Shown one piece after another: positions 6,978 to 34,646 of a stretch of DNA of 34,646 nucleotides. A program made the position numbers and the translations under genes. The DNA lies in NCBI GenBank assembly GCA_963803975.1, contig CAWDOY010000007.1, forward strand, positions 1 through 34,646. The letters run 5' to 3'. Below the pieces are notes generated by a model that had not been told where the DNA came from, searched no databases, and worked only from the letters and a program-made list of their open reading frames with translations. Origin of the DNA: an uncultured delta proteobacterium. GTDB taxonomy: Bacteria > Desulfobacterota > WTBG01 > CAIYCZ01. The first letter of the stretch is position 1, and every line of letters starts with the position of its first letter.

Positions 6978-7026
6978 CCGCGGAAAACGCAGCGCTGACA
7001 CTTTGAAAAGAAAATTACCATTGCGC

Positions 7027-8088: not shown

Positions 8089-8089
8089 C

Positions 8090-9076
8090 ATGAAAATAGT
8101 CATCCTTCACGCCCTGATTCCTGAAGGCGCCGATACGGAAGAACTGGACACCCTGGTCCAGGTTGAAGCGGTCCTGCGCGCACTGGCCGGGCTGGGACAT
8201 GACGTGCGCGCCCTCCCCTTCTCCCTCGACCTCCAGGCAGCAGCGCAGTCACTGCAGGCGCTCTCCCCTGATCTTGTTTTCAATCTCGTGGAAGGCATTA
8301 ATGGACAGGGCCGGCTGATTCATCTGTCCCCCGCGCTGCTTGACTATCTGCATATTCCCTACACCGGAGCGCCGGCCGACGCCATGTACCTCACTTCAAA
8401 CAAGCTTCTTGCCAAGCGCCTCCTGAGAGACCGGGGCATTCCCACGCCGCACTGGCTTGCGGATGGCGCGCTTGAGGAACAGGCCACCTTTAGTGGCAGC
8501 GCTTTTATTATTAAAGCCGTGTGGGAGCATGCATCTGTTGGTCTTGATGAGGATTCGATCATCACCCCCATTGACCGGAAGCATTTGAACAGAGAAATTG
8601 CGCAGCGGCAGCACGACTGGAACCGGGAGTTTTTTGCCGAGCGCTATATTGACGGCCGGGAATTCAACCTGTCTCTTCTTGCCAGTGACCGCGGGCCCGA
8701 AGTCCTGCCGCCGGCAGAGATTAAATTCGTCGACTATCCTTCCGGGAAGAAGCGAGTGGTCGGCTACCGGGCCAAATGGGATGAGGCGTCATTTGAATAT
8801 CAGCACACGCAGCGCTGTTTCTCCTTCCCTGAAGAAGACCGGCCCCTGCTTGACAAGATCAGCGCGCTCGCTGAAAAATGCTGGCAGGTATTCGGCCTGC
8901 GCGGCTACGCCCGGGTTGATTTCAGGGTGGATGGAACGGGCGCTCCCTTTGTGCTTGAGGTCAATGCGAACCCCTGCATCGCGCCGGACAGCGGCTTTGT
9001 GGCCGCGGCAGCAAGGGCAGGGATTGATTTTACTCGGGCGGTTGAACGGATACTGAAGGACACGATGAGAACATGA
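8090..9076 (+). CDS. ATP-grasp ligase, D-Ala-D-Ala ligase-like (copy 2)
   Basis: VFNLVEG, IPYTGA, IIKAVWEHASVGL, ERYIDGREFN, YRAKW, GYARVDFR, LEVNANP. ATG lies 1 nt after the previous stop. Confidence 0.88.
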   Translation: MKIVILHALIPEGADTEELDTLVQVEAVLRALAGLGHDVRALPFSLDLQAAAQSLQALSPDLVFNLVEGINGQGRLIHLSPALLDYLHIPYTGAPADAMYLTSNKLLAKRLLRDRGIPTPHWLADGALEEQATFSGSAFIIKAVWEHASVGLDEDSIITPIDRKHLNREIAQRQHDWNREFFAERYIDGREFNLSLLASDRGPEVLPPAEIKFVDYPSGKKRVVGYRAKWDEASFEYQHTQRCFSFPEEDRPLLDKISALAEKCWQVFGLRGYARVDFRVDGTGAPFVLEVNANPCIAPDSGFVAAAARAGIDFTRAVERILKDTMRT

Positions 9077-10605
9077 ACCAGAACAGCTTCTGGGGCAACC
9101 TGAGCGCGTTTCTGGCATTGCTGCTGGACAACGTGGGAAACCTGGTATTTTTGAGCTCTATCCTCATTTTCACCTTTCACTATCCAGCGGACCTTGTGCT
9201 CTTCCGCATGATACCGGGCACTGCGCTGGGAGTGCTGTTCGGCGACCTGACGTATACGGTCCTGGCGCGCCGTTTGCGAAAAAAAACCGGGCGCAGTGAC
9301 GTGACCGCCATGCCCCTGGGGCTTGATACACCGTCAACCATCGGCATCGCCTATGCGGTGCTGGGGCCAGCGTACCTTGCAACCCATGATGCTGTGCTTG
9401 CCTGGAAAATCGGCATGGCGAACCTCTTCATTATCGGTGTGGTCAAGGTCTGCACCTCGTTTTGCGGCAGCATGATACAGCGCGTTATTCCCACGGCAGG
9501 GCTGCTGGGCTCAATTGCCGGCATTGGCCTCTTGTTTCTCGGCTTTCTTCCGCTCATTGAAATCTTTACCGTCCCCGTTGCCGGCATGGTTGCGCTGGGA
9601 ATTATGTTTTATGTGCTGATCGGCAGGATGGACCTGCCCTACCGGTTGCCGGGAATTTTTGTCGCGGTGGTCATCGGAACGATTGTCTATACCGCGCTGG
9701 GATCTGGCGGTTATATCCCGGCCTACCGTCCGCCGGAGTTTGCCATGCACGCATCACTGCCGCATTTCAGCGCTGGGTTTCTCGCTGAGCTGCCGGCAAC
9801 GCTTAAGTATCTCCCGCTGGCCATACCGTTCGGCATCATCACCATCATCGGCGGCATTAACAACACTGAGAGCGCCCGCCTGGCCGGCGATGATTACCGC
9901 GCCCGGGACATACTCCTCACCGAGGCATTCTCAACCCTCGTTGCTGCCTTCTTCGGCGGCGTGGCACAGACCACCCCCTATATCGGTCATCCGGCCTATA
10001 AAAAGATGGGCGCGACCTGGTGGTATACCCTGGCGACCGGACTTTTTATCGGCCTGGGGGCAATGGCCGGCATTATGTCGATAATTATCGGCCTCGTCCC
10101 AAAGGCGGTGCTGGCGCCAATTTTTATATTCGTCGGATTCGAAATCGTGTCGCAGGCCTATGCATCAGTGCCGATTCAGTATTCTGCAGCGGTGACCTGC
10201 ACCTTTTTCCCCACCATAGCCAACCTCATGGTGGTGCTGCTCGGGCAATTCTTCAGCCAGCTGAAAATCTCTCCCGGGACTTTCCCGCCCGATCTGAAGA
10301 CGCTCTACCAGACGCTTATTATACTCGGCAATGGGTTTATTCTCACGGCGATGCTCTGGGGCGGGATGCTTTCTTCGCTCATTGATAAGAGGCTGCGGCG
10401 CTGCGCAGTATACGCGCTGGTGTGCGCAGCGCTCACCCTGTGCGGGCTCATGCACTCGGTATTTCCGTCAGGAGAAATCTATCTGCCGTGGCATGTACCG
10501 GGATCCCTGCACGGGGAGGTTGCTGTTTCCTATTCTATGCTTGCGGCTTTATTCTGGCTGCTGTCCCTGCAGAAACAGGAAGCTCAAGAACCACTAAAGC
10601 TGTGA
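9073..10605 (+). CDS. NCS2/AzgA-like permease
   Basis: Highly hydrophobic 510 aa; VTAMPLGLDTPS, NNTESA..AGD.Y and TTPYIGHPAYKKMGA motifs; ATGA overlap with the upstream gene. Confidence 0.8.
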   Translation: MNQNSFWGNLSAFLALLLDNVGNLVFLSSILIFTFHYPADLVLFRMIPGTALGVLFGDLTYTVLARRLRKKTGRSDVTAMPLGLDTPSTIGIAYAVLGPAYLATHDAVLAWKIGMANLFIIGVVKVCTSFCGSMIQRVIPTAGLLGSIAGIGLLFLGFLPLIEIFTVPVAGMVALGIMFYVLIGRMDLPYRLPGIFVAVVIGTIVYTALGSGGYIPAYRPPEFAMHASLPHFSAGFLAELPATLKYLPLAIPFGIITIIGGINNTESARLAGDDYRARDILLTEAFSTLVAAFFGGVAQTTPYIGHPAYKKMGATWWYTLATGLFIGLGAMAGIMSIIIGLVPKAVLAPIFIFVGFEIVSQAYASVPIQYSAAVTCTFFPTIANLMVVLLGQFFSQLKISPGTFPPDLKTLYQTLIILGNGFILTAMLWGGMLSSLIDKRLRRCAVYALVCAALTLCGLMHSVFPSGEIYLPWHVPGSLHGEVAVSYSMLAALFWLLSLQKQEAQEPLKL

Positions 10606-18856: not shown

Positions 18857-19687
18857 ATGAAGAAGCACCAAAAAAAACACTGGGGACTTCTGCTGCTGGT
18901 AATAACCATGCTTTGCATACTGCCGGCATGCAAAAACCAGAACAAAGAAGAGATCGGGGTGCTCTATGTGCTGCACGGGGGAATGGACACCTTTGCGCCG
19001 CAGTATATGTGGGACGCATCGCTGCACCAGTTTTCTTATGATCCCAACCATCCCGTTTACCAGATAGCAATCTGGAATCCAGAGATGTGGCAAACGATCC
19101 TGCAATCTGAATTTGCTGTTAAGTTTACTAGAAAGTACGAGTTCCAATATCCCCGGATCGGCGGTACCGACCCTTTTCATGCGCTTTCCAACACCCAGAT
19201 GGAAGACATGAAAGCTGAGTTGAACAAGAACACTCTTGGGCTGCACTTCGAGGCGGAGTTTGCGTCCTGGATGTCGGCCGGCCGGCCGGAAAATTACCCG
19301 TATCCGCGGTTCATGTATAACGGGCCGGAAGGTGCCAAGGCAAAATGTACTTACTGCGGCGAGCAGGAAGCAGATGGCCCATGGCCGGGCTGCAACCCGG
19401 AGCGCTATAATGTAGACGGGCCGGTGGAGCGCTTGCTGAAAAAGGGTGTTTCCCGGATTATAGCCGTGGATATGGCGGTAGGCGGAGTCCGGTTTTATAA
19501 GCCCTATGATGTGGTGCAGATGTCCAAACGCGTTCTTGACAAGGTGTTCCCTGCAGGCCACGAGCAATGTCCTTTAACCCTGGATCCGCTGAATCGGATT
19601 GAGCTTTTTCCCTTTCTCCTTGAACTATTTTTACCCCCTTTAATTTACACTTTCTTTACATCCCATTCAAACTCCCTTCACATTTAA
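18857..19687 (+). pseudogene. Lipoprotein of unknown function, apparently 3'-truncated near 19543
   Basis: AGGAGG RBS, LPAC lipobox, IGVLYVLHGG. After RVLDK the frame runs into non-coding-looking DNA that overlaps a promoter. Confidence 0.55.
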
Positions 19688-19697
19688 AACCTATACT
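19644..19697 (+). promoter_or_regulatory. Four-box 11-bp-period promoter, copy 1
   Basis: TTTACA(19644)-N5-TTTACA-N5-TTCAAA-N5-TTCACA-N9-TATACT(19692). Confidence 0.8.
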
Positions 19698-19786
19698 AAA
19701 GCTGTAACATGAAGAGACAACTGAATGCAGAGAGCACGTTTTACCCTCTGCAAATTCTTCCATGCCAGAAAAAAAGGAGACACACT

Positions 19787-20125
19787 ATGAAAAAATCAAT
19801 CATCTTAATCAGCATGCTGGTCCTGCTGGCCGGGTGCGCAACCGTGCGAACAGATTTTGCGCCGCTGCAATTTGGCACAACCGCAGCAAAAACAAGCGGA
19901 GACATCCTGCTCGCTACCGGGGACCTTAACCGCCCGTATAAGGAGCTTGGCGTTATCTTTGTTAAGGGACGTCATACCGGGTACCAGAGCATTATGGAAA
20001 AGCTCAGGGAAAAGGCCCGCGAGGTGGGGGCAGACGCGGTCATTAAAATAGAATTCAGCAGCAGATTTTTCTATTACCACCGGCCTTATTGCCGCGGTGT
20101 CGCGGTTTCATTTAACGTGAAGTAG
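19787..20125 (+). CDS. Small lipoprotein, YbjQ/heavy-metal-binding-like fold
   Basis: AGGAG RBS, MKKSII...LAGC lipobox, YKELGVI...LREKAREVGADAVI. Confidence 0.7.
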   Translation: MKKSIILISMLVLLAGCATVRTDFAPLQFGTTAAKTSGDILLATGDLNRPYKELGVIFVKGRHTGYQSIMEKLREKAREVGADAVIKIEFSSRFFYYHRPYCRGVAVSFNVK

Positions 20126-20155
20126 CAAATAGTATCAGATGAAAGGAGAACTGTT

Positions 20156-20332
20156 ATGAAAAAATGGATTCCACTAATTATTGTTCTTGTGACATTTATC
20201 GCCGCAGGGGGCAAGTTCATGGCAGCGAAAAAGTACGGCGCACTCTCTATATCTCAGGACTATGAGAACCTTGTGTCAGCGCCCGTATATTTTTGCGACA
20301 CGGTTATCACGGCGCAATCAGGGCTTTTTTAA
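20156..20332 (+). CDS. 58-aa small protein, family member A (absent from ORF track)
   Basis: AGGAG RBS; MKKWIPLIIVLVTFIAAGGKFMAAKKYGALSISQDYENLVSAPVYFCDTVITAQSGLF; paralogs at 30019-30264 and 31886-32059. Confidence 0.85.
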   Translation: MKKWIPLIIVLVTFIAAGGKFMAAKKYGALSISQDYENLVSAPVYFCDTVITAQSGLF

Positions 20333-20347
20333 TTGAAGGAGGGCGCG

Positions 20348-20992
20348 ATGACAGAAAAGGAGAGTCTTGAACTTGCCACCATGTGGCACGTGGATGCGCT
20401 GCTGCAGGCATATCCCATCGCCATTGTGACCACCATGGACCGGGCGGGAAGAATTAACGCGGCGCCCTATTCACTGGTGCTGCCATTCTGTTCCTCAGCA
20501 AAAAATCCCCAGATGCTGTTGATCAGCAATAAGAACTGGCACACAGCGAAAAACATTGAGGCAACCGGCGAGTTTGTCCTTAATTACCCTCGTGCTGACC
20601 AGCTTAAGGATGTTACCGAGACCGCTCATTTTCATCCAGCCGGGGTCAATGAGCTTTACTATACCGGCTATACCACCATGCCGGGCCGGGCAGTGCGGCC
20701 GCCGCGGATTGCCGAGTGCTACCAGCACGTGGAATGCAGGGTGCGCGAAATTATCCGGCCGTCACCGCAGCAAATCAACATCATTGCTGATGTGGTTGAC
20801 CTTTCAGCCGATGCGGGGCTCTATGGCGTTCCCCGCTTTGAGCGGGCGCGGGCGGTTAATGCTCCACTCTATCTGGGGGTTGATGAGGAGCGGGGTCACA
20901 TTTTTGGAAATGTCAGCAAAATGTTCACCGAGCCGCTTGAACAATATGGGGCAGGTGAAAAAAAGCTGCCGGCACATGAGGCTGCTTGCTAA
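20348..20992 (+). CDS. Flavin reductase-like FMN split-barrel protein (paralog 1)
   Basis: PIAIVTTMD..GRINAAPYS, HTAKNIEATGEFVLNYP, VRPPRIAECYQHVECRV. Confidence 0.9.
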   Translation: MTEKESLELATMWHVDALLQAYPIAIVTTMDRAGRINAAPYSLVLPFCSSAKNPQMLLISNKNWHTAKNIEATGEFVLNYPRADQLKDVTETAHFHPAGVNELYYTGYTTMPGRAVRPPRIAECYQHVECRVREIIRPSPQQINIIADVVDLSADAGLYGVPRFERARAVNAPLYLGVDEERGHIFGNVSKMFTEPLEQYGAGEKKLPAHEAAC

Positions 20993-21188
20993 AAAAGCAG
21001 CCAGCTTAAAAGACAAAGAGGTACACGACAGGTGCTCCAGCGGCAGCAAGGCGCCTGATTTTCGTTTAAAGCCACTCCTGCAGCTAATGATATGACGCTT
21101 TACACATAATGTTGCACAAGCATTGTGCGCAAGCACTGGTGAGATCGGCTATTGACAATTTAAAGATTTCTGTTAATCAATTATTCGT

Positions 21189-21482
21189 ATGGATATTAAT
21201 AAATACTTTCTAAAAATTATCTGCATAGCACTTTTTATTTTCGCGCCAATCTGCGCTGTACCGAATGAATGCGGTAGTAACGAGATTGAAAAGGAGATAA
21301 GCGCCTTGCATTGTATTGGTAAAAAAATAAGACAAACAGATTATCCCGGCAAATTATTAGATATTTTTCAAAACACTATAGGAAAAAATATCCCGCAATC
21401 AATATTTGCAACCAGGATTTCAAGCCATTTTTCCCCAACTGTGTCCATTACTGATTTAACCACTGCACCACTGCTCCTATAA
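21189..21482 (+). CDS. Hypothetical protein with N-terminal hydrophobic segment
   Basis: 97-aa AT-rich ORF upstream of htpX; no recognisable motif. Confidence 0.4.
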   Translation: MDINKYFLKIICIALFIFAPICAVPNECGSNEIEKEISALHCIGKKIRQTDYPGKLLDIFQNTIGKNIPQSIFATRISSHFSPTVSITDLTTAPLLL

Positions 21483-21655
21483 GCAAATTAGCTCCCATAC
21501 CGCAACTTTTGCCAGCAAACTTAAAATAGATCGTTTTAAAAGTGTCATAGATACACGACGCCGGGTAGATGCCGCTAAAGCGATCGGATGTATCTCACCA
21601 GTGTTTACTAACAGCAATAAAATAGAACGATAGACCTTTTTATTGGAGATTAGAG

Positions 21656-22501
21656 ATGAATACCTGCAAGACAATGTTTTTAATGGTCACGCTGACCCTG
21701 ATGCTCGTGGCAATCGGAAATTTACTGGGTGGCAAATCGGGCATGACCATCGCTCTGGTCATAGCGTTCGGGATGAATTTCATCAGCTACTGGTTCAGCG
21801 ATAAGATAGTACTTAAAATGTATAGTGCCCGGGAAGTGAGCGAAACCCAGGCACCAGAACTATATAGCATGACCAGAGAGCTTTCTTATGCAGCAGGACT
21901 TCCCATGCCAAAGGTTTACCTGATGGAACAGGACCAGCCAAACGCCTTTGCAACCGGGCGGAACCCGGAACACGGTGCAATAGCGGTGACAACCGGCATT
22001 ATGCGAATACTGTCGAGGGAAGAGTTGAAAGGGGTGCTTGCCCATGAGCTGGCACACATCAAGCACCGGGATATTCTGGTGGCAACCATTGCTGCAACCA
22101 TCGCCGGTGCTATCAGCTACCTGGCACAAATGGCACAGTGGACAATGTTCTTCGGCGGGCGGGATGATGAACGAGAAGGCGGAAGCCCGCTGGCTGCAAT
22201 AGTGATGATGATTGTTGCTCCCATAGCAGCGCTGCTTATCCAGATGGCCATATCCCGTTCGCGTGAATACGGGGCAGATGCCGGCGGGGCGCAAATTGCC
22301 GGAAACCCGGGGTATCTTGCCAGTGCGCTGCGGAAGCTCGATGGCGCCAGCCGGAGAATACCGATGAACGCCAACCCGGCAACAGCGCACATGTTTATTG
22401 TGAGCCCGCTTTCCGGGGGCGGATTTCTCAAACTGTTCAGCACCCATCCCCCGATGGAGGAGCGGATTGCCCGGCTTGAGCAGATGGCTGCATCACGGTG
22501 A
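21656..22501 (+). CDS. htpX: Zinc metalloprotease HtpX
   Basis: [43 protein letters not shown]. Confidence 0.97.
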
Positions 22502-22793
22502 ACAGGGTTGGTTATACGCGAGAACGCAGCTTCCATCAGTGTGTGTACCAAATGCTTATGTTTAGATACATTGCCACGGGAAGTTTTATGATTTTTTCAT
22601 CCCCACGGGGAGGGCCAGCGGGTACCCCCTCCACCTCTGGCCTTCCCCAAACGGGCTGCAAGAAGCATACAGGTGCAATTTATTTATTCCCTGTTAACAT
22701 AGCGTTATTTTTGCTGTCATTCAAATCGTATGCGAAGAACTGCATTAAAAAGGGATAAACAGTCTAATCCAGTTCACCATTTAATTAGCAAAC

Positions 22794-23417
22794 ATGAATT
22801 GCTTGAGAAGAACTTATGATTGGGTATTAGGTTGGGCAAAGACCCCCTACGGTGCAATCGCATTGTTTTTATTGGCCTTTAGTGAGTCATCCATTTTCCC
22901 CATTGCTCCAGATGTATTGCTGATTGTTTTAGTATTAGGAGCAAAAAACAAAGCGTTCGGCTATGCAACCAATTGTACTGTCGGCTCAATTTTAGGCGCC
23001 TTTTTGGGGTATGGTATTGGGTACTTTCTCTGGTGGAATGCAGATGAGATCGTTCTCTCCAGTTGGCCATGTTCTTTTTTGACCAGATCCCCGGATTTAC
23101 ACCGGCTGTGTTTTTATAAAATAAAAACGCTTTTCGAGAAATGGGATTTCTGGATAATTTTTACAGCAGGTTTTACCCCGATACCTTACAAATTATTTAC
23201 CGTATCAGGCGGTGCATTTCAAATAGATTTAACAATGTTTACCCTGGCATCAGTTATAGGAAGAGGTGCACGATTTTTTCTTTTAGCCTTTTTACTGTGG
23301 AAATTTGGTGAAACCATAAAACTTTTTATTGAAAAGTATTTTAATATGATTGCGATAGGCATTTCTCTAATTTTTATTGGTGTTTTTGTTGCTTTAAAAA
23401 GTGAGCTCTTTTTTTGA
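22794..23417 (+). CDS. YqaA/DedA family membrane protein
   Basis: LAFSESSIFPIAPDVLL, AGFTPIPYKLFT, GRGARFF. The middle segment looks locally frameshifted. Confidence 0.9.
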   Translation: MNCLRRTYDWVLGWAKTPYGAIALFLLAFSESSIFPIAPDVLLIVLVLGAKNKAFGYATNCTVGSILGAFLGYGIGYFLWWNADEIVLSSWPCSFLTRSPDLHRLCFYKIKTLFEKWDFWIIFTAGFTPIPYKLFTVSGGAFQIDLTMFTLASVIGRGARFFLLAFLLWKFGETIKLFIEKYFNMIAIGISLIFIGVFVALKSELFF

Positions 23418-23446
23418 TAGATATTATTTAATGAAAGGGGAAATTT

Positions 23447-23975
23447 GTGAAAAAGAAAATATCAGCGATCCTTATTCTTGCAGTTTTTCTTATGCCTCTT
23501 TGTGCATATGCACAAAATCAAACTCTTATCATGTATTACTCAAAGACCGGCAAGACACAAATCGTTGCCGAGGAACTGAAAGCTCTCATGCCTGATGCCC
23601 GGGTGGTTGAAATAAAATCTGATGTGGGAATTATGAAGGCAGTCATGTGGCAGCAACTCTTCAACCGCAATGCTTGCAATGAACCAATAGCTGTCGATCT
23701 TGAAAAATATGACCGGGTTATTCTTTGCTCGCCTATCTGGCTGCAAAAAATATCTTCTCCCATGAGAACAATAATCAACACGGTGCCCCTTACGGGTAAA
23801 CAGGTGCAGATGTTTGTCGTGTGTGCAGGGCATTTTGGAGAGGGGGGACAGAAGAAACTGAAAAAACAACTTGACTTCCAAAGAAATTAATTTGGAAAGC
23901 TTAGCTATTATAAAGTCTGGCAATAAAACAGATGAAGATATTCGCGAACAGGTCCAGGAGCAGTTAAAAAACTGA
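23447..23975 (+). CDS. Exported flavodoxin-like protein 1 (frameshift near 23870)
   Basis: Signal peptide ending AYA, YYSKTGKT FMN loop, YDRVILCSPIW. The C-terminus continues in another frame to EQLKN* (23975). Confidence 0.8.
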
Positions 23976-24041
23976 ATCAGAAGATACAAAAGGCAGGGTA
24001 CCCTTGATATCTTATAAGTTTTATTTAATCTGGAGATTTTT

Positions 24042-24464
24042 ATGACTAACAACTATCTTGATAGAAGCAATTACGTAAAAGGTCTCTTGCTTTTAATTGG
24101 CAAAGACAAAAAAATAACTGATAGTGAAAGAGATTTTTTGCATAACATAGGAAAAACCCTTAGTTTCAATAAAAAGTTTATTGAAAGCGCTATGAATGAA
24201 TTATTTGAGAATGAATATTTAGGGAATGAACCACCAGTTTTTTCTCAAAAACAGTATGCTGAAGCGTTTCTGAGAGATGCGATTAAATTAGCCTGTGTTG
24301 ATAATGATTTAGCAAGCGAAGAATTTGATTGGCTGCAGTCAATAGCCGTATCAAATGGTTTAGCGAATGAATGGCTAAAAAATGAATTAGAGTATTATCT
24401 AAGCGGTAAACATGCGCACGAATCACAAGAACTGGAAATAAAAAAAATATTTGATACCGTATAG
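24042..24464 (+). CDS. TerB-like protein
   Basis: Two TerB-like helical repeats: LLIGKDKKITDSERDFL and KLACVDNDLASEEFDWL. Confidence 0.7.
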   Translation: MTNNYLDRSNYVKGLLLLIGKDKKITDSERDFLHNIGKTLSFNKKFIESAMNELFENEYLGNEPPVFSQKQYAEAFLRDAIKLACVDNDLASEEFDWLQSIAVSNGLANEWLKNELEYYLSGKHAHESQELEIKKIFDTV

Positions 24465-24620
24465 AATATTCGAGAACCTCTCATCCGGGGAGAATCTTAC
24501 TGGTAGAAACCTGCAAAAGAAAAAACAAAGTCAGGCAAAGAAAAGCGATAATGTAATACGGTCAAAATAAGTGCGATGTCCCCTGAATTCCCGTTTTAAC
24601 AAAAGAAGGAGGTAATATCA

Positions 24621-24920
24621 ATGAAGCCAAGTGAAAAAGAGGAAGAGTTTTTTGTAAGAATGGAGTTTGAAAAAAAGAAGAAGATTGAGGAAGAAAAGCA
24701 CAAGAGACTTGCCGAGGAAGAAAAGAAAAGGCTGAAAGAACTTCATTATATGCAATGTCCCAAGTGCGGAATGGAACTGATAGAGATTGATTATAAAGGG
24801 ATAAAGATAGATGAGTGTTCTGAATGTGATGGGATATGGCTTGATGCGGGAGAACTTGAAACTGTAGCAAAACTGGAAAAGACCGGGCTTGATAAGTTCT
24901 TTAGTATATTTAAGAAGTAA
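24621..24920 (+). CDS. zf-TFIIB zinc-ribbon domain protein
   Basis: KPSEKEEEFF coiled coil, CPKCGMEL...IDECSECDGIWLDAGELE; GGAGG RBS. Confidence 0.88.
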   Translation: MKPSEKEEEFFVRMEFEKKKKIEEEKHKRLAEEEKKRLKELHYMQCPKCGMELIEIDYKGIKIDECSECDGIWLDAGELETVAKLEKTGLDKFFSIFKK

Positions 24921-25017
24921 AGAAACAGTTGCTTGCCGAGTATTAATACCATCATCTCAATAGGGTGTGCTGTTTTGCAGCGAAATTGTCACGAGCAAAA
25001 GAATAAACGGGGTTTCT

Positions 25018-27619
25018 ATGCGCTGGCATCAAAAGGATATACAAGGAGTCATTGAAGACCTCAAGTCATCACTTCAGGGGCTTTCTTCTGAAGAGGCCGT
25101 GAGGCGACTGGGGGAATACGGTTTTAATGTATTAAAGGAGAAAAAGAAAAAGACTCCTTTCATGATGTTCCTTGACCAGTTCAAGGACTTTATGATTCTT
25201 GTCCTTATCGCTGCTGCCATTATATCAGGGTTTATTGGAGAGGTATCAGACACCATAGCTATAGTTGTCATCGTTGCCCTTAACGCAGTAATTGGTTTCA
25301 TACAGGAATACAGGGCAGAAAAGGCGATGGCAGCCCTTAAAAAAATGGCGGCTCCGACTACCACGGTCATAAGAAGTGGTATGCCTGCCACAATTGATGG
25401 CTCTGACATTGTTCCCGGCGATGTGGTAATGCTTGAGGCGGGGCGGATCGTTCCTGCTGATATGAGACTGCATCGAGACAGTGCAGATGAAGGTGGAAGA
25501 AGCTGCACTTACCGGTGAATCTGTGCCGGTAGAGAAACATACAAAACCACTGCATGATGAGATGCTGCCTCTGGGTGACAGAAAGAATATGGCATACAAA
25601 GGCACCTTCGTGACCTATGGTCGCGGCACCGGTGTTGTTGTGGCAACCGGTATGGATACAGAGCTTGGAAAGATCGCTGCCATGCTTCAGGAAGAAGAAG
25701 AGGTAAAAACACCTCTTCAAAAAAGGCTTGCAAGCTTCGGTCAGAAACTCGCCATTGCTGTCCTTGCCATATGCGCTATTGTATTTGGCATTGGCATTAT
25801 GAGAGGGGAACAGCCTTTGTTGATGCTCCTTACGGCTATTTCCCTTGCAGTTGCCGCAATTCCGGAAGCGCTGCCTGCGGTTATAACCATATCCCTCGCG
25901 CTGGGAGCGAAGAAACTGGTAAAGCAGAATGCCCTCATAAGGAAGCTCGCTGCGGTAGAGACCCTCGGCTCAGTGACATATATCTGTTCAGACAAGACAG
26001 GTACTCTGACATTAAATAAGATGACGGTTGAGGAACTCTATCTTGGTGGCAAAATACTTCGGGCTCCGGAGATGGAAGCTCTCAAAAAAACAGATCATCC
26101 TCTGATGGCAGCCTTGGCTTTAAGTAATGATGCGCAGACGGGAACGGACGGCGTTATTATTGGTGACCCCACAGAGATTGCATTATATGACATTGCCAGG
26201 AAACATGGTTTTGACAAGAAAGAGCTTGAAAAAAAATATCCAAGAGTAGCCGAAATCCCGTTTGATTCTGACAGAAAATGCATGACTACCGTACACACAG
26301 GGACAGAAGGTTTTGTTTCCTTCACAAAGGGCGCGATAGAAGTCCTGATCGATAAGTCAATTAATATAGTAACACCTGAAGGATTGGAGGCTATTAATAG
26401 TAGTGCTATCTATAGGATTAACGAGAGGATGGCTGCCGATGGCTTAAGAGTTCTTTGTATGGCCATGAGGAAATGGGATGTCCTGCCTGATGATATGTCT
26501 CCTGAGAATGTGGAGACCGGACTCACTATTTTAGGCCTCACGGGGATGATGGACCCCCCGAGAGAAGAGGCCAAGGAAGCTGTCTCGATGTGTAAGACAG
26601 CGGGAATAAAACCGGTGATGATAACCGGCGACCATCCTATTACAGCGAGGGCAATAGCCAGAAGGCTCGGCATCATCGATGATGACTCAAAAGCAATAAT
26701 CACCGGAAGAGAGCTTGAAAAATTAACATTAGAGGAGTTTGAAAAAGGGGTTGAGCATATCAGGGTTTATGCAAGGGTGGCGCCTGAGCAGAAACTGAAG
26801 ATAGTAAAGGCGCTTCAGGACAGGGGACAGTTTGTTGCCATGACCGGCGACGGGGTTAATGATGCACCTGCATTAAAGAGGGCTGACATTGGAGTAGCCA
26901 TGGGAATTACCGGGACGGATGTCTCAAAAGAAGCAGCTCACATGATACTCCTCGATGATAATTTTGCCACCATTGTTAAGGCGGTAAAAGAGGGCAGAAA
27001 GATATACGATAACATCAGAAAATTCATAAAATATCTCCTTACAACAAACTCAGGCGAAATATGGACTCTCTTTCTTGCGCCTCTGTTCGGCCTACCGATA
27101 CCTCTTCTACCGATCCATATACTCTGGATAAATCTTGTCACGGACGGGCTCCCTGCCCTTGCTCTTTCTGTTGAACCTGCAGAGGGAGACGTTATGAGCA
27201 GACCCCCAAGGCATCCAAAAGAAAGTATATTTGCTCACGGATTGGGACTTCATGCAATATGGGTTGGCATCCTGATGGCTGGCATTGTTCTTGTTGTTCA
27301 GGCATGGGCGATTACGACTGAACATGCTCATTGGCAGACAATGGTATTTACCGTGCTCTGCCTGACCCAGCTTGGCCATGTCCTTGCCATAAGATCTGAA
27401 AAAGAGTCATTGTTCAAGATAGGATTATTCTCTAATAAATATCTCCTTTTCGCAGTCTTGTTGACCTTTATTCTTCAGATGTCAACGGTCTATGTGCCGG
27501 CATTGAATCCCATATTCAAGACAGAGCCTTTGACTTTAAATGAATTGATGCTTACGCTCGCATTGTCATCCGTAGTATTTTTTGCAGTAGAGGTTGAGAA
27601 GTTATTTAGGCGGAGATAA
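25018..27619 (+). CDS. Cation-translocating P-type ATPase (type IIA, Ca2+-like), one frameshift near 25470
   Basis: [59 protein letters not shown]. Confidence 0.95.
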
Positions 27620-27660
27620 GACAGTTCAAGGCTGTATTTAACCCTACAATTCTCAAATTC

Positions 27661-28461
27661 ATGAAACCACAAGAAATAATTATAAAATCCACAAAAAAAA
27701 TTTGGCAGAAATGGTCAATAGCATTCAAGATAATGCCTTTGGTTATTTTAGTAGCTATATTAAAGTTTCTTTCTCATAAATTTGGATTAGAGATCATGGA
27801 GTTAAATGCCCTTTTCACAAGTTTAGTAGCCGGCACCATATTCCTGATAGGATTTCTTATTAGTGGAGTGCTTTCCGATTATAAGGAAAGTGAAAAAATT
27901 CCAAGCGAGCTTTCAGCATCCATGAAAACATTATTTGATGATACTTACACCATCTATAAAGGTAAAAACTCTGATACAGCCCATCAATTTATTGAATTTC
28001 AAAAGTCATTTATTAATTCTTTGATGGATTGGTTCTACAAAAAGGAAAGGACACAATCAATATTAAAAAAAATTAGCATGATGAATGATTTTTTTATTGA
28101 ACTTGATAAAGAAGGTGTTCAGGCTAATTATATTATAAAAATGAAGAATGAACAAAATAGTTTGAGAAAGATGATATTAAGAATTGATACAATCAGAGAC
28201 ACCGAATTTGTTGGTTCAGCTTATGCAATTGTAGAAGCCATGGGGTTTTTAATTGCAATTGGTCTGATAATTATAAAAATTGAACCATTTTACGCATCAC
28301 TCTTTTTCACTTTACTTGTTACTTTCTTGATATCTTATATGTTTTTTTTAATTAAAGACCTTGATAATCCGTTTGATTATTCTGTTAACGGTGAAAGCGG
28401 AACAGAGATTTCATTAAAACCAATTCACGACCTTGAATCTGAATTGAAAGATTTTATGTAA
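27661..28461 (+). CDS. AT-rich membrane protein, bestrophin/DUF4239-like
   Basis: Four TM segments, GFLISGVLSDYKESE, and IKDLDNPF. Confidence 0.65.
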   Translation: MKPQEIIIKSTKKIWQKWSIAFKIMPLVILVAILKFLSHKFGLEIMELNALFTSLVAGTIFLIGFLISGVLSDYKESEKIPSELSASMKTLFDDTYTIYKGKNSDTAHQFIEFQKSFINSLMDWFYKKERTQSILKKISMMNDFFIELDKEGVQANYIIKMKNEQNSLRKMILRIDTIRDTEFVGSAYAIVEAMGFLIAIGLIIIKIEPFYASLFFTLLVTFLISYMFFLIKDLDNPFDYSVNGESGTEISLKPIHDLESELKDFM

Positions 28462-28876
28462 AATTATACAAAGGTAAAAAGGGGATAGAAAAATAAACAA
28501 CGAATTGCCAACACGCGTGTACGGTGCATACCCTTGTCACGCCTGCCCGCCATAGCTTCAGCAAAGGCGGGTACCTAAATACGGCTCCTACACGCTGGAA
28601 AAGTTTTATCGCGAAGAGGCAGAGCGGGGAGGATGAATTAAATGTATCTTATTCTTCTGCCTGCGCTATCCATTCAATTAAAGGACATATAAGAAAAAAC
28701 GGCATAAATAAAAATCAACTCTCCGTGGACAGAAAATCTTTTTATGGCGAGATTTTTCGCTAGTCTCGCTATCAAACCAGATAATAAGCGAAGTCATCAC
28801 TGTCCCCTCTTTTTACTACGATAGATTGTGATTGTGGTCGTTAAATCAATGTGAAAAAAAGGATTTCTAATAAAAC

Positions 28877-29854
28877 ATGAGAGCAGATATTATAAATCGA
28901 TCTCCTATATCTTTTATTTATCTTTCGATCTCCGCGGCTATTGTAACCATTGTACTGAAGACCGTTGCATACTTGCTGACGGGTTCAATCGGTCTGCTTT
29001 CAGATGCAATCGAATCGCTTGTCAATCTGGTTGGAGCACTCATGGCGTTTGCGATGTTGACTATAGCAGCTCGTCCAGCCGATGAAAACCATGCCTATGG
29101 ACATAGTAAAGCCGAGTACTTTTCAAGTGGTGTCGAAGGCACATTGATTCTGATTGCCGCAATAAGCATTGGCGTGACGGCTGTTCAAAGACTTATCACC
29201 CCCAAACAACTTGAACAGGTTGGGTTGGGATTAGGAATATCCATTGTAGCCTCATTAGTGAATTTGGCTGTCGCACTTTTATTGCAACGAGCTGGCAAGC
29301 ATTACCATTCAATCACACTTGAAGCTAATGCAAAGCATTTGATGACTGATGTGTGGACATCAGCAGGTGTGGTGCTCGGAGTCGGCGCGGTAGCACTAAC
29401 TGGTTGGGAGCGACTGGATCCTGTTGTTGCAATTATCGTCGCCGCTAATATCGTCTGGTCAGGGGGGCGCATAGTGTATCAGTCCGTATCGGGATTAATG
29501 GATACAGCCCTGCCACCTGAAGAGCAGAATACCTTAAGAAAAATACTAGAGCCCTATATCCAAACCGGGGTTCAGTGCCACGCCATTCGTACACGCCAAT
29601 CAGGAATGCGTCGATTTGTATCACTTCATGTATTGGTTCCTGGTTTATGGACAGTCCAGCATGGGCATTATCTGTTGGAAAAAATAGAATCAGCCATTCG
29701 CCAAGCTTTGCCAAACGTGACAGTTTTTACTCACTTGGAGTCGCTCGAGGACCCCTCTTCCTGGAAAGATACAGATTTAGATCGTATAGAAGCAGCGCCG
29801 GTTGTCACCTTACAGCAAGCAGCAGACGGAGAGGTCAAGGCACAAACAAAATGA
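28877..29854 (+). CDS. Cation diffusion facilitator (FieF-like) transporter
   Basis: [46 protein letters not shown]. Confidence 0.95.
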
Positions 29855-30018
29855 ATAAATATAAGCAGCATGTCGATTTTGCCAGATAAATAATCTAAAC
29901 TACCAATTGCATATGGAAGTGAAGGTAAGTATACCGTCTTGGAATTGTACCCACCTGCAACCAGTGCTCCCCCACATCCCGTAAGACATTTCGCTTTAGG
30001 CTCTCCTTCTGCTCTCTG

Positions 30019-30264
30019 CTACAATAAAGTAGGCATAACTGAATCAACTAGGTAACAAAAATAACCCGGCACTGCAGCGAAATTCTCATACCCCTGAGAC
30101 AGGCTGCAATATATATTGTCACACAGTTTAAGACAACGAACTGCCCCGGAAAATCCGTGGCCTTGACCAATGGAGAGCAGGCAGTATTCTTTTACCATTA
30201 GGAACTTCGTGCCGACTAGTGCAACAAAGCTAAGCAAACTGATTGCCGGAAGATATTTTTTCAT
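30019..30264 (-). CDS. 81-aa small protein, family member B
   Basis: AGGAG RBS; aligns with 20156-20332 (MKK..P.I, KF...K.Y..LSI.Q, YEN....P.YFC) with a 23-aa insertion. Confidence 0.8.
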   Translation of the reverse strand: MKKYLPAISLLSFVALVGTKFLMVKEYCLLSIGQGHGFSGAVRCLKLCDNIYCSLSQGYENFAAVPGYFCYLVDSVMPTLL

Positions 30265-30317
30265 GGCAAATCTCCTTTCTGAAACGGTGTTTATTGGTAT
30301 AACCTTTATACGCCTTT

Positions 30318-30371
30318 AGTATAGAGACAAACTGTGAAGGGATTTTGAATGGAAGGTAAATAAAGTGTAAA
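30318..30371 (-). promoter_or_regulatory. Four-box 11-bp-period promoter, copy 2
   Basis: Minus strand TTTACA-N5-TTTACC-N5-TTCAAA-N5-TTCACA-N9-TATACT. Confidence 0.8.
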
Positions 30372-30513
30372 TTATAGGAAATGAATCAGAGGATAGAAAT
30401 TATAGTGCATATTTAAGATCCTATATCTTCAACAAAAAAACGGTGTAGTAAGCGTTTTTTAACAGAACTCTTATCAATATAATATGGCCTGTAAATTTTT
30501 AATCTCAAGTATG

Positions 30514-30606
30514 CTATACTGCATCCAATATTTTTTCTATTTGAAGCTCTTGTGATCCGCGTGAATATTTACCGCTCAGATAATACTCTAATTCATTGTT
30601 TAACCA
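30514..30606 (-). pseudogene. 3' remnant of a second TerB-like gene
   Basis: WLNNELEYYLSGKYSRGSQELQIEKILDAV* matches the C-terminus of 24042..24464 (WLKNELEYYLSGKHAHESQELEIKKIFDTV*). Confidence 0.8.
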
Positions 30607-30725
30607 TAACCGCACAAATAACCAAAATTTCCGGTTGCTATCATAGACATCTCCGCCCGGCAGGAATAATGACAGCAAGATACAAAGGAGGATACGCAAA
30701 TAAAAGCGCATCTCTCCCATTAGGA

Positions 30726-31368
30726 TTATGAGTCAAAATCAGCCTTGATTTCTTCCACCCTCGTTTGTGCTTCGGCAGCAAGCTGATGCCAGGGTCTTTT
30801 TTTCGACTGCAAAATGAACATGGCCTTTGAATTGGCTGAACTGGTTCAATGTGCGGGCTACTTCATCGCGAGCTTTCATTTTTTTACCATCTAAATACCC
30901 TTTGAGAAAGCGCTTTACAGCATTTCCTTTTCCCTCTGTGTATGGAGCATATTTTTGGATGTCAATATTTGCGACTGTTACCAGGACAATCTTCTGGTCC
31001 TTGAAGTGATTGTTTAAGAGTAACGAATGAATCGGCGTGGCCAAATTCCATGACCAGATCGGGGAAGCGATAATGATGTTCTTATACCCTGAAAGGTTAA
31101 TCACATCAGGAGTGATTTCACCGTGCTGGTCAAAAAAAGCTGCAATACCAGCAGTGATAAACCCCCATGTTCCCGCCCGGTCAGTGCCGACTTCCTTAAT
31201 CTCTATGATGTCTGCACCCATCCCTTTTGCAATTGTTTCAGAGATAAGTTTCGTATAACCCGTTCGGGAGTAATAAAGAATAAGCGTGTCGCTTGCTGCA
31301 GATGCAGCTACCGGAATCACCAATGTGATGCACAATACTAGCAGAATGCTATAATTGAAACGTTTCAT
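30726..31368 (-). CDS. Exported flavodoxin-like protein 2 (probable frameshift near 30790)
   Basis: GGAGG RBS, signal peptide ending ASA, YYSRTGYT, YKNIIIASPIW. The alternative-frame C-terminus is EEIKADFDS* (30726). Confidence 0.8.
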
Positions 31369-31487
31369 GTTTGTGCCCTCCATCATTGATTTATATTATT
31401 TATCACCTCAATTAGATTTTCCGAGTATTCGGCTTGCGGTGTTAAGAACAGTCAATAACATTGTCTTTTCAACCTTGTTTAAATTTA

Positions 31488-31541
31488 ATCATGTAATAAA
31501 TCTTTTAAGGAAATTTGAAGAAGATGTAAATAAAGTGTAAA
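31488..31541 (-). promoter_or_regulatory. Four-box 11-bp-period promoter, copy 3
   Basis: Minus strand TTTACA-N5-TTTACA-N5-TTCAAA-N5-TTAAAA-N9-CATGAT. Confidence 0.72.
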
Positions 31542-31741
31542 CGTTTTATTGTCTTAAAAAAGGATTTTGCTGATGGATTAAAGGGTTAGTGACCTGCTGA
31601 TCCTGCAGTTCAACTCCGAAGCAAAATACTATAATTTTCAACTCTTCCTGGAGTCCACTGGTTTAAGATAAACTCACATTGAAATTTATACGCGTCTAAA
31701 TGAATTTGTTTAACCCAAAACTCCCTCAGTCCCCTCTGAAA

Positions 31742-31795
31742 TTTACACTTATTTTACATTCAACTCAAAATTCCTTCACATTTCTCCTGCATAAT
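31742..31795 (+). promoter_or_regulatory. Four-box 11-bp-period promoter, copy 4
   Basis: TTTACA-N5-TTTACA-N5-CTCAAA-N5-TTCACA-N9-CATAAT. Confidence 0.78.
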
Positions 31796-31885: not shown

Positions 31886-32059
31886 ATGAAAAAGTTTTAT
31901 GCTCTGGCAGTAGTTATGATTTTGCTAACACTGATGGCAGAACGAGTATCTATTGATGATCGTTACTGTTCTCTGTGTTTATCGCGGGGATATGAGCTGC
32001 TGGTTACTTCACCAGAGTACTTCAGCAGTATTCCATCAATCGTACCTGGTCTGTTTTAA
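31886..32059 (+). CDS. 57-aa small protein, family member C (absent from ORF track)
   Basis: AAGGA RBS; MKKFYALAVVMILLTLMAERVSIDDRYCSLCLSRGYELLVTSPEYFSSIPSIVPGLF. Confidence 0.82.
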   Translation: MKKFYALAVVMILLTLMAERVSIDDRYCSLCLSRGYELLVTSPEYFSSIPSIVPGLF

Positions 32060-32079: not shown

Positions 32080-32697
32080 ATGCAAAAAGAGAGTTTGGAA
32101 CTGCATGTGATGTGGCATCTGGATGCGTTGCTGCATATCTTTCCCATAACCATTGTAACCACGGTGGATACTTACGGAAGGATTAATGCAGCGCCATATT
32201 CGCTGGTGATGCCCTTTTGTTCTTCGCCGAAAAATCCGCAGATGCTTTTGATTAGCAACAAGAACTGGCACACGGCAAAAAATATTGAAGCAACGAAAGA
32301 ATTTGTGTTGAACTATCCACGGGCAGAGCAGCTAAAGGATATAATCGAGACCGCACAATTTTATCCAGCCGGTATTAATAAGCTGGAATATACAACATGT
32401 ACCACCATGCGGGCACGATTTGTAAAACCACCCCTTATTGTTGAATGCTACCAGCACGTTGAATGCCGGGTGCGTGACATTATGAGGCCGTCACAGCAAC
32501 AGGTAAACATTATTGCAGATGTTCTTGACATTTCAGTCGATGCAGGGATTAACTCGCTTACGCGGTTTGAGCGTGCACGAATGGCCAATGCGCCCATGTA
32601 TCTGGGGGTGGATGAAGAACGGGGACATATATTTGGAACAATGGGTGAAATAGTATCGGAACCTCTTGAATATAAATTGGAACTTGATGCTGGATGA
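32080..32697 (+). CDS. Flavin reductase-like FMN split-barrel protein (paralog 2)
   Basis: Near-colinear paralog of 20348..20992 (GRINAAPYSLV.PFCSS.KNPQMLLISNKNWHTAKNIEAT). Confidence 0.9.
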   Translation: MQKESLELHVMWHLDALLHIFPITIVTTVDTYGRINAAPYSLVMPFCSSPKNPQMLLISNKNWHTAKNIEATKEFVLNYPRAEQLKDIIETAQFYPAGINKLEYTTCTTMRARFVKPPLIVECYQHVECRVRDIMRPSQQQVNIIADVLDISVDAGINSLTRFERARMANAPMYLGVDEERGHIFGTMGEIVSEPLEYKLELDAG

Positions 32698-32753: not shown

Positions 32754-33416
32754 ATCGAGTAGGAGGCAGGTGATTAGTTCACCTGCCGTCCTCTCACACC
32801 ACCGTACGTACCGTTCGGTATACGGCGGTTCGTAAAGAACTAAGCCTACTATAAACAACAGCAAGACCCGTCTTCTCCTCCTGCTGACGCTGAAGCAATA
32901 CTCGGCTCTCCTGCGTTACCTCGGGGTTCCACTCCTACTTCACGCAGGTAGTCCCAACTTTTGTCGGGTTGGCTGCTTTCGTTGCATTGCTCACAAGTCC
33001 TGCAACAGTTAAAGACCTCTCTACGTTCAGCCCTTCTCCCGACTTTGCTCGGGATACTATGGCCTCTGCTGACTTCTGACCGTTCAATCGTGCATTGCTG
33101 CAGCGGGTTGTTGCTTCTGAATGTATCATCCCCATCATACCGGTCAGATCTCCCCGGGTAAGATCGATAACTTTCATCCCATCTACCTGCTGCATTTACT
33201 TCATAAGCTTCGGGCAGTATTGGACTTTGTTTTGTTTGGCAAACTCGTCCGGCTTATGCAGCCTTACATGCAGTTTCTGTTCGTCAGGCCGGGACTTTGC
33301 CTCCGGCTTCTTTCAGATTCGAGTCACCCACGACACCCTTGCCTTTGGCTAATGATTCCTGCTGCCAAGTTCATAGCGGACTTTCACCGCCAAGTTATCG
33401 CCCATGCCGGGCACAC
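32754..33416 (-). mobile_element. ORF-less group II intron, class C (IIC)
   Basis: Minus-strand 5' end GTGTGCCCGGCATGGG; short domain V GAACCGCCGTATACCGAACGGTACGTACGGTGGTGTGAGAGG; domain VI ending CCTCCTACTCGAT. 663 nt with no RT ORF. Confidence 0.93.
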
Positions 33417-33803: not shown

Positions 33804-33962
33804 ATGATCCGGCGCAAGAAATTTATTTTTTTCCCGAAACACAAATACCTACAATATGCGGCCTATGTCGCAGCAATAGTGCTCTTGATCGCGCTGGTGG
33901 TATACGGCGTGATGGAGCAGTCAAACTTTGCCGATGCCCTGGTGGAGTCATTTGTTGAGTAA
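33804..33962 (+). CDS. 52-aa single-pass membrane protein (absent from ORF track)
   Basis: MIRRKKFIFFPKHKYLQYAAYVAAIVLLIALVVYGVMEQSNFADALVESFVE: basic N-terminus, one TM segment, GC-rich third codon positions; no clear RBS. Confidence 0.55.
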   Translation: MIRRKKFIFFPKHKYLQYAAYVAAIVLLIALVVYGVMEQSNFADALVESFVE

Positions 33963-33995: not shown

Positions 33996-34646
33996 TCAGC
34001 CCAGGAGGGGTAGCGTGACGATAACAGTTGTCCCCCTGCCAGCTTCACTCTCCGCCCGGATATGCCCTCCATGGGCCTCCACAAAACGCTTGGCAATCGC
34101 AAGACCGAGGCCGGTACCGCCGGTTGTGCGCGACCGTGATTTATCCACCCGGTAGAAACGGTCAAAAATATGGAGAAGGTCTTCCGCCGGAATCCCCGCT
34201 CCCGTATCCCGCACCCAAATAGTAATTCCCGCGTTGTGCGTTTTTGCTCCCACCTCTATGGTTCCCCCTGCCGGCGTGTAGCGGATGGCATTGGCGAGCA
34301 GGTTGGAAATAACCTGGCCGATGCGTTTCTCGTCTACTGCAATTGCCGGCAGGCCGGGGGCAATGTCCTGTCTGAGCGTGACAGCCTTTTCTTCCATCTG
34401 GAGAAGAAAGCGCGCGGTTTCACGGGACAGCACCTCGCCGATTGAAACACGGGCGCGCTCCATGACGAGCTGGTTATTTTCAAGGCGCGAAAGCATCAAA
34501 AGATCATCAATCAGGCGGTCGATGTGAGTCACTTCCTCGCATATCGCCTGCAGATGCAGGGCCTGCTCCTCCTTTTTTATCTCCCGGTCGATGAGGATCT
34601 CCGCATCGGTCTGAATGCGGGCAAGCGGAGAGCGGATTTCATGGGA
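33996..34646 (-). CDS. Sensor histidine kinase (HisKA + HATPase_c), 5' part outside window
   Basis: H-box SHEIRSPL at the window edge, NLLANAIRYT, VRDTGAGI, IFDRFYRVDKSRSR, GGTGLGLAI: a BaeS/PhoR-type kinase usually paired with OmpR-family regulators. Confidence 0.95.
   Translation of the reverse strand, partial: SHEIRSPLARIQTDAEILIDREIKKEEQALHLQAICEEVTHIDRLIDDLLMLSRLENNQLVMERARVSIGEVLSRETARFLLQMEEKAVTLRQDIAPGLPAIAVDEKRIGQVISNLLANAIRYTPAGGTIEVGAKTHNAGITIWVRDTGAGIPAEDLLHIFDRFYRVDKSRSRTTGGTGLGLAIAKRFVEAHGGHIRAESEAGRGTTVIVTLPLLG

Follow-up and report, generated by a model that had tools for sequence, protein, structure and literature searches.

Four similar elements on one contig of an uncultured delta proteobacterium raise the question of whether they are promoters of a single regulon, and if so, which regulator reads them and what it controls. 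The window, i.e. the whole stretch of DNA that was analysed (34,646 bp; CAWDOY010000007.1 of assembly GCA_963803975.1), is the entire contig C7 of the source genome, labelled G000 (4.25 Mb). A first-pass annotation had described four 54-bp sites, each with four hexamers (TTTAC(A/C), TTTAC(A/C), (T/C)TCAAA and TT(C/A)A(C/A)A) at an 11-bp period and a -10-like hexamer after a gap of 9 bp. We recovered all of these, with the same coordinates, strands, hexamers, period and gap:

19644..19697, plus strand: site 1, four boxes, 11-bp period, 9-bp gap, -10 TATACT, predicted start at about 19704
30318..30371, minus strand: site 2, four boxes, -10 TATACT
31488..31541, minus strand: site 3, four boxes with box 4 degenerate, -10 CATGAT, divergent from site 4
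31742..31795, plus strand: site 4, four boxes, -10 CATAAT

The four-box observation is real and not due to chance. As the annotation had suggested, we built a position weight matrix (PWM) from the four window sites, using the 24 box columns alone and no -10 columns, and ran it on the genome. Seven sites scored between 24.8 and 33.6 bits, while the next best match was at 17.9 bits. When each window site was left out in turn, it was still found within the genome-wide top 5. Three of the seven were new: C56:31079 (+), C40:9658 (+) and C40:56542 (-). The two on contig C40 sit in copies of one duplicated segment, so that two of the three are independent. All three had a hexamer (TATAAT, CATACT and CATACT) exactly 9 bp beyond box 4, although the PWM did not score it. 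With up to 3 mismatches, the four-box pattern matched 7 times in the genome itself and never in any of 60 shuffles of 100-bp blocks. The matches of a reversed-pattern control in G000 were the C40 sites read out of register, and provide no independent background.

We then asked how much of each site is conserved. Among the four window sites the pairwise identity was 0.83-1.0 for the boxes and 0.32-0.37 for the flanks. The spacers had been described as more variable than the boxes. Spacers 2, 3 and 4 were at 0.50, 0.70 and 0.35, respectively, but spacer 1, which reads CTT(T/A)N, is not free to vary (0.73). Since spacer 1 is conserved, the distal element is better regarded as the 17-bp TTTACACTTTNTTTACA.

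The sites were also found outside this genome. An exact search of metagenomes with the four-box pattern yielded 84 loci (given L-numbers) with 58 distinct sites. With no locus dropped, 44 of the 58 had xAxxxT at the 9-bp gap, in comparison to 0-8 sites at gaps of 5-8, 10, 12 and 13 bp, and 20 at a gap of 11 bp. After 29 of the 84 loci had been excluded on visual inspection, as coming from the gut or from other lineages or as resembling tandem repeats or iterons, the -10 was present at the 9-bp gap in 38 of 41 sites, and the first four bases of spacer 1, for which the pattern had N, were 93-100% conserved. For sets found by a pattern, box conservation is in part a circular measure; this does not apply to the -10 or to the pairwise figures from the window alone. 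In genomes, sites were present in 11 of the 42 of the host's class. Among 401 genomes of the phylum only four outside the class had a match, in each case with 2 mismatches and lacking the CTTT spacer; one such match stands before a pstS-like gene (in G281) and another before a creD-like gene (names read from sequence). In G026, G032, G039 and at one site in G016 the element was longer: three proximal boxes, with the 9-bp gap kept, were preceded by additional repeats.

These figures bear on the possibility that the boxes are passive copies, i.e. that a promoter-plus-peptide cassette was duplicated or moved and the repeats were retained by recent descent alone. The genes after sites 1, 2 and 4 encode homologous peptides, the two flavin reductase genes of the window are paralogous (74% identical at the nucleotide level), spacer 1 is conserved nearly like the boxes, and G000 contains many duplicated segments. 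However, the flanks of the window sites are at background identity. In 19 metagenome representatives with less than 45% flank identity, boxes 1, 2 and 4 remain at 0.93-1.0 (partly fixed by the pattern) and the -10, which was not selected for, at 0.77. Moreover, in several families of the class the box precedes unrelated genes, which encode a flavodoxin-like protein, a regulator or a 4Fe-4S protein. We consider passive copying highly improbable, and conclude that the regulon is real and conserved.

Two groups of metagenome loci deserve a separate mention. In one lineage (L087, L126, L127, L138, L157 and L168) the box is followed by a conserved open reading frame (ORF) or leader of 44-55 codons, which stands before either the gene of the regulator described below or a 4Fe-4S gene. 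The same four hexamers were also present in other lineages (L132, L136, L150, L161, L172, L178 and similar). Of the other-lineage loci, L124, L161, L172 and L178 carry a -10 at 9 bp; others have near-identical spacers and no -10, and are more iteron-like.

With a standard -10, the boxes fall at about -60, -49, -38 and -27. The -35 slot reads AAACTC, AAAATC, AAATTT and AAAATT at the four sites, with no TTGACA-like hexamer. Tandem direct repeats that recur every 10-11 bp and always occupy the same place over the -35 region are expected of an OmpR/PhoB-type regulon, and the sites show this feature.

Which protein might bind them? The window ends within a sensor kinase gene:

33996..34646, minus strand: C-terminal part of a sensor kinase (HisKA and HATPase), cut by the contig end

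The kinase is incomplete and its partner regulator missing because the window is the whole contig and ends there. The first-pass annotation had placed a response regulator beside this kinase; there is none in the window, and the only orthologue that we found in the assembly is on C40. Here a full-length paralogue of the kinase is paired with an OmpR-family response regulator (RR) at G000:C40:47918-48607. The window part is 78% identical to the C40 kinase and 83% to a kinase at L134, while its closest named relatives (79-81%) come from metagenome-assembled genomes labelled uncultured Syntrophaceae and Proteobacteria, which suggests a deltaproteobacterial host. The C40 pair links a regulator of receiver and winged-helix domains with a HAMP-HisKA-HATPase kinase of 459 aa. 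The periplasmic domain of the kinase was modelled as a single PAS/PDC fold (pLDDT 80); its best fold match, the WalK extracellular domain (TM 0.57), is generic.

G000 has eight OmpR-type DNA-binding domains, and the C40 RR was the only orthologue found among them. In 15 of the 84 metagenome loci, many of which are short contigs, the RR or the kinase (at least 55% identity) was encoded less than 4 kb from the box. In 4 of these the RR gene follows the box, and in 11 the kinase gene is convergent with it. Eleven box loci had an OmpR-type gene, and the C40 RR was the best match in 10 of them (66-93%); the other seven OmpR genes of G000 were at most 45% identical to these genes. In relatives the box lies directly upstream of the RR gene (G023) or divergent from it (G026 and G032), whereas in G003 box and kinase converge, with peptide and flavin reductase genes between them, which is the gene order seen at site 4. 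The motif occurred in 9 of 18 RR-positive and 2 of 24 RR-negative genomes of the class (Fisher p=0.004, with kin not independent); with an additional pattern search, these numbers became 10 of 18 and 3 of 24. The recognition-helix region was nearly invariant among the 18 RR orthologue sequences listed. The annotation had proposed an uncharacterised two-component regulon with repeats of the kind bound by OmpR/PhoB-family regulators. Neighbourhood and co-occurrence support such a regulon, tied to this kinase family; the architecture, as seen below, is not new. These comparisons point to one unnamed OmpR-family pair, with the RR at G000:C40:47918-48607, as the likely regulator of the sites.

As PhoB and PhoP boxes have a similar layout, we compared the sites with the Pho box. 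PhoP promoters carry their box at about -60 to -22, a position that the window sites match. In the B. subtilis PhoP box, TT(A/T/C)ACA-like repeats occur four times at an 11-bp period (PMC11870197, citing Eder 1999), as they do in the window sites, and the four-repeat, 11-bp architecture is therefore already known and would be no surprise to a specialist. The sites could then simply be Pho boxes, activated on phosphate starvation by the PhoB/PhoP-type regulator at C16:100828-101508, in the way of B. subtilis PhoP. Besides layout and hexamer (PMC11870197), a 2-mismatch match before the pstS-like gene of G281 agrees with this, as does one TTAACA half-site in the C40 sites that resembles the pst repeat of G000. 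That repeat, at G000:C16:96533 (-), is a TTAACA-type four-repeat element of 11-bp period. It precedes a porin/pst-like operon, with a PhoBR-like pair nearby, and is the probable Pho box of G000. Its units (TTAACA-CAAT) are 7 mismatches off our motif. As this genome has its own pst-type repeat, and as none of the 84 box loci had a pstS/A/B-, phoU- or pit-like match, we conclude that the sites would work like a Pho box and yet are no Pho regulon. The PhoB-like matches in box loci (27-45%) were cross-matches to the C40-type RR. The C40 RR itself is only 42-45% identical to the pst-linked regulator of G000, scores 217 bits against a cut-off of 296 with the PhoB model TIGR02154, and is not a PhoB/PhoP orthologue. 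The sites further differ from the B. subtilis box in their Gram-negative lineage, the conserved CTTT spacer 1, a distinct box 3 and targets other than phosphate genes. Control by the pst-linked regulator is thus very unlikely. E. coli PhoB also binds 11-nt direct-repeat units head-to-tail and contacts sigma70 (PMC4415409), as in class II activation, but its half-site is CTGTCAT, in comparison to TTTACA/TTCACA in the window sites, and its targets are different.

We also evaluated other known systems. On the opposite strand, boxes 1-2 read GTAAA-N6-GTAAA, which is within the CpxR consensus GTAAA-N(4-8)-GTAAA (PMC5063474). The first-pass annotation had called this pair CpxR-like but one base longer. 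Orthology, however, fails: the RR reached 182 of the 341 bits required by the CpxR model and the kinase 178 of 486 for CpxA. The cre-tag of CreBC, TTCAC-N6-TTCAC (PMC4689548), shares the period and resembles boxes 3-4, and the WalR motif of S. aureus, TGTHH-N6-WGTNDD (PMC10746227), fits boxes 1-2 on the opposite strand. However, the RR was below the cut-offs of CreB (191/273 bits), YycF (209/340) and BaeR (213/380), and the kinase below that of WalK (281/725), a model of 594 positions in comparison to 459 aa. Both proteins were under every NCBIfam cut-off among the 25 best models listed, and no cell-wall hydrolase or creD targets were seen among the box targets. We therefore rejected WalKR, CreBC and BaeSR, whose curated equivalog cut-offs were not reached. 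The arrangement of box, peptide and kinase described below does recall cpxP, a small exported target gene beside its pair. But in the window sites the boxes are four in number and constant in position and orientation. The peptide matches no Pfam or NCBIfam family, and no CpxP-family protein was found beside the pair, the window peptides being without a Pfam match at E<=0.001; with the low orthology scores, CpxRA was rejected as well.

From the geometry of the sites and the precedent of PhoB/PhoP, we propose that two tandem RR dimers bind each site and that the proximal one replaces the -35 and recruits sigma70 polymerase, a mechanism that we regard as fairly probable. The four sites would be activator-dependent sigma70-type promoters. 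The phosphorylated RR, a lineage-specific OmpR-family protein (that of C40 and its orthologues), would bind the four repeats as two dimers: a strong distal one on the 17-bp TTTACACTTTNTTTACA at about -60 to -44, and a proximal one on boxes 3-4 at about -38 to -22. The latter would stand in for the missing -35 and recruit RNA polymerase in the manner of PhoB/PhoP. The regulon would be small, with 7 sites in G000, and include a peptide family, exported flavodoxin-like proteins, flavin-reductase-like proteins and a lipoprotein, and in some relatives the RR itself. The signal is most likely to be the periplasmic or envelope redox state, sensed by the single PDC-type periplasmic domain. This is suggested by the targets, which are flavin- and cysteine-rich and largely exported, although we put the odds of an envelope redox signal at about even.

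Several observations weigh against this reading. In 8 of the 18 RR-positive genomes (three genera) no four-box site was detected by the patterns used, even though, among the sequences listed, the recognition helix of these genomes is nearly the same. A three-box pattern with 3 mismatches, applied to 13 genomes, gave matches mostly near chance, except for one three-box site in G036. Conversely, the site is present in three RR-negative genomes (G018, G024 and G039; 79-90% complete). There is no box upstream of the RR gene in G000, G001 and several orthologues, and in G000 and G001 the RR would accordingly not be autoregulated. The linked loci are of shared ancestry and include duplicates (L179/L201, and L194/L195 on one contig). 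Repeats of TT(T/A/C)ACA at 11 bp also precede pst-like and creD-like genes, and the half-site is therefore not unique to the C40-type RR. In RNA, one metatranscriptome contained 5% of the sequence words of the window. Its contig covering 19660-20239 begins upstream of the predicted start of site 1, and so cannot map that start; read-through or DNA may be its origin. Coverage of sites 2-4 was close to nil. Finally, the label of an "envelope/redox stress" regulon is unsupported as the first-pass annotation stated it, target annotation being the only basis of the redox stimulus, and the peptide at 20156 is without CxxC.

Some of these points would also fit a different role for the protein. The same RR could be a repressor, or another OmpR-family or unrelated protein might bind, with the kinase pair linked to the box by shared history. 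Boxes 3-4 overlie the -35 region and spacer and might occlude polymerase, G000 offers eight OmpR-type domains, and there are the eight RR-positive genomes with no detected site. On the other side, the sites lack a -35 consensus at 17 bp, and the gap of 9 bp is constant across lineages, which one would expect of a contact with polymerase and not of occlusion. The box is also tied to the same pair in three different arrangements. We thus consider a repressor or another binder unlikely, if less so than a Pho box, and retain activation by the C40-type RR as the preferred reading.

What, then, do the sites control? The genes downstream are, as had been annotated, for exported or small proteins: one lipoprotein, one flavodoxin-like protein that is exported, and two small peptides. 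Sites 3 and 4 are divergent. The genes concerned are:

19787..20125, plus strand: lipoprotein, 112 aa, first gene after site 1; weakly YbjQ-like, below the Pfam cut-off
20156..20332, plus strand: peptide, 58 aa, with hydrophobic N-terminus and aromatic C-terminus; the CxxC of the family is missing
20333..20992, plus strand: flavin-reductase-like (PF01613), paralogue of 32080-32697
30019..30264, minus strand: peptide-family member, 81 aa, target of site 2; has an internal insertion of 23 residues
30739..31368, minus strand: flavodoxin-like, 209 aa, with a signal-peptide-like N-terminus; target of site 3
31886..32059, plus strand: peptide-family member, 57 aa, with YCxxC; target of site 4
32080..32697, plus strand: flavin-reductase-like (PF01613)
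33804..33962, plus strand: second small single-transmembrane protein, about 52 aa, tail-to-tail with the kinase

We searched the 1200 nt that follow each of the 84 metagenome sites for homologues of the window proteins, and found those of the peptide at 25 sites, of the flavin reductase at 13, of the lipoprotein at 12 and of the exported flavodoxin-like protein at 7. Other targets, read from sequence, were MarR-like, 4Fe-4S and CxxC-containing proteins. The sites most likely switch on exported redox-type proteins and tiny membrane proteins. Further downstream of site 1, beyond the 1200-nt range, are htpX, DedA-like and TerB-like genes.

Sites 1, 2 and 4 precede members of one unannotated family of 57-81-aa peptides, a link absent from the earlier annotation. 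Family members (about 58 aa) have a basic start, about 16 hydrophobic residues and an aromatic C-terminus, and YCxxC is present in 41 of 65 homologues (65 clusters). The gene is usually tail-to-tail with the kinase gene; a truncated remnant adjoins the C40 kinase. The family was found in 3 of the 42 class genomes, all from the family of the window's host, with up to five copies or fragments per genome. In other families of the class this position is taken by small hydrophobic genes that look unrelated. The window peptides gave no Pfam match at E<=0.001 and no NCBIfam family; the best match in an ESM Atlas search, at 0.76, was uninformative. The protein of about 52 aa is conserved at the 3' end of the kinase gene, again tail-to-tail, in G000:C40, G001, G003, L153 and L165. 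The 5' end of its window gene abuts a 33-bp exact copy of window 24060-24092.

MgrB and SamT are small membrane proteins under two-component control that bind and damp its kinase, PhoQ and RstB, respectively (PMC13425233). The 58-aa peptide resembles them in size, hydrophobic N-terminus and regulon position (the promoter assignment being inferred); it differs in matching no sequence family, in its usual tail-to-tail gene order and in its up to five copies or fragments. Size, position and the link with the kinase make it a candidate MgrB-like feedback peptide, which we consider possible but doubtful. By this speculative model, the RR-kinase operon would form a self-regulating module together with the box and the gene of the 58-aa peptide, in which the RR-induced peptide binds the kinase and is tuned by its CxxC. 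Complex prediction with the N-terminal dimer of the kinase (residues 1-235) and the peptide scored 0.00 with the fold of the partner uncertain, and is evidence neither for nor against the model. If the model is true, the peptide would be membrane-anchored or exported, and the CxxC would make feedback sensitive to periplasmic thiol state or metal. A feedback peptide of the MgrB/CpxP kind, or else a peptide signal, would then have arisen independently in this anaerobic lineage of deltaproteobacteria and have been amplified into several diverged copies in G000, and the second small membrane protein at the 3' end of the kinase gene would be a further modulator.

Neither motif nor regulator was named in the literature matches listed, those for the sequence TTTACACTTT among them (titles and abstract openings, with subscription papers mostly uncovered). 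As far as these searches reach, both the assignment of the regulator and the family of peptides are new. They would provide a complete and testable set of regulator, sites and targets for an unnamed two-component system of an uncultured anaerobic lineage. The promoter grammar is unusually rigid, and reconstitution in E. coli is possible. A PhoP-type four-repeat layout, apparently reused by a non-phosphate regulator beside a genuine pst-type repeat, calls for caution in Pho-box predictions. The 58-aa proteins, an unannotated family of 65 clusters, may plausibly modulate the kinase.

Some minor observations were also made. Proteins of about 100 aa at window 21189-21482 (+), G000:C40:9859-10164 and 8385-8717 precede exported or membrane genes, and have hydrophobic N-termini and similar C-terminal ends (S/T-rich, then LL/LNL); the window copy had no family match. 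They are possibly leader or arrest-type peptides. An ORF at window 18857-19687 ends inside site 1, a P-type ATPase is split over two frames (window 24967-27619), and the C56 lipoprotein ORF (G000:C56:31250-31590) is frameshifted or truncated. Near-duplicate segments were seen on C40, C9/C27 and C40/C41. The broken ORFs and near-duplicates may reflect decay, a mixture of strains or errors of assembly. A group II intron (window 32754-33416 (-), about 660 nt, three Rfam matches) that lacks a reverse-transcriptase ORF lies between the flavin reductase and kinase genes; two pieces of it match C50:1-124 and C50:1365-1920, indicating a longer copy on C50. Window 5625-10605 (+) encodes a lysine-2,3-aminomutase-like radical SAM protein, two D-Ala-D-Ala-ligase-like ATP-grasp proteins and a membrane protein.

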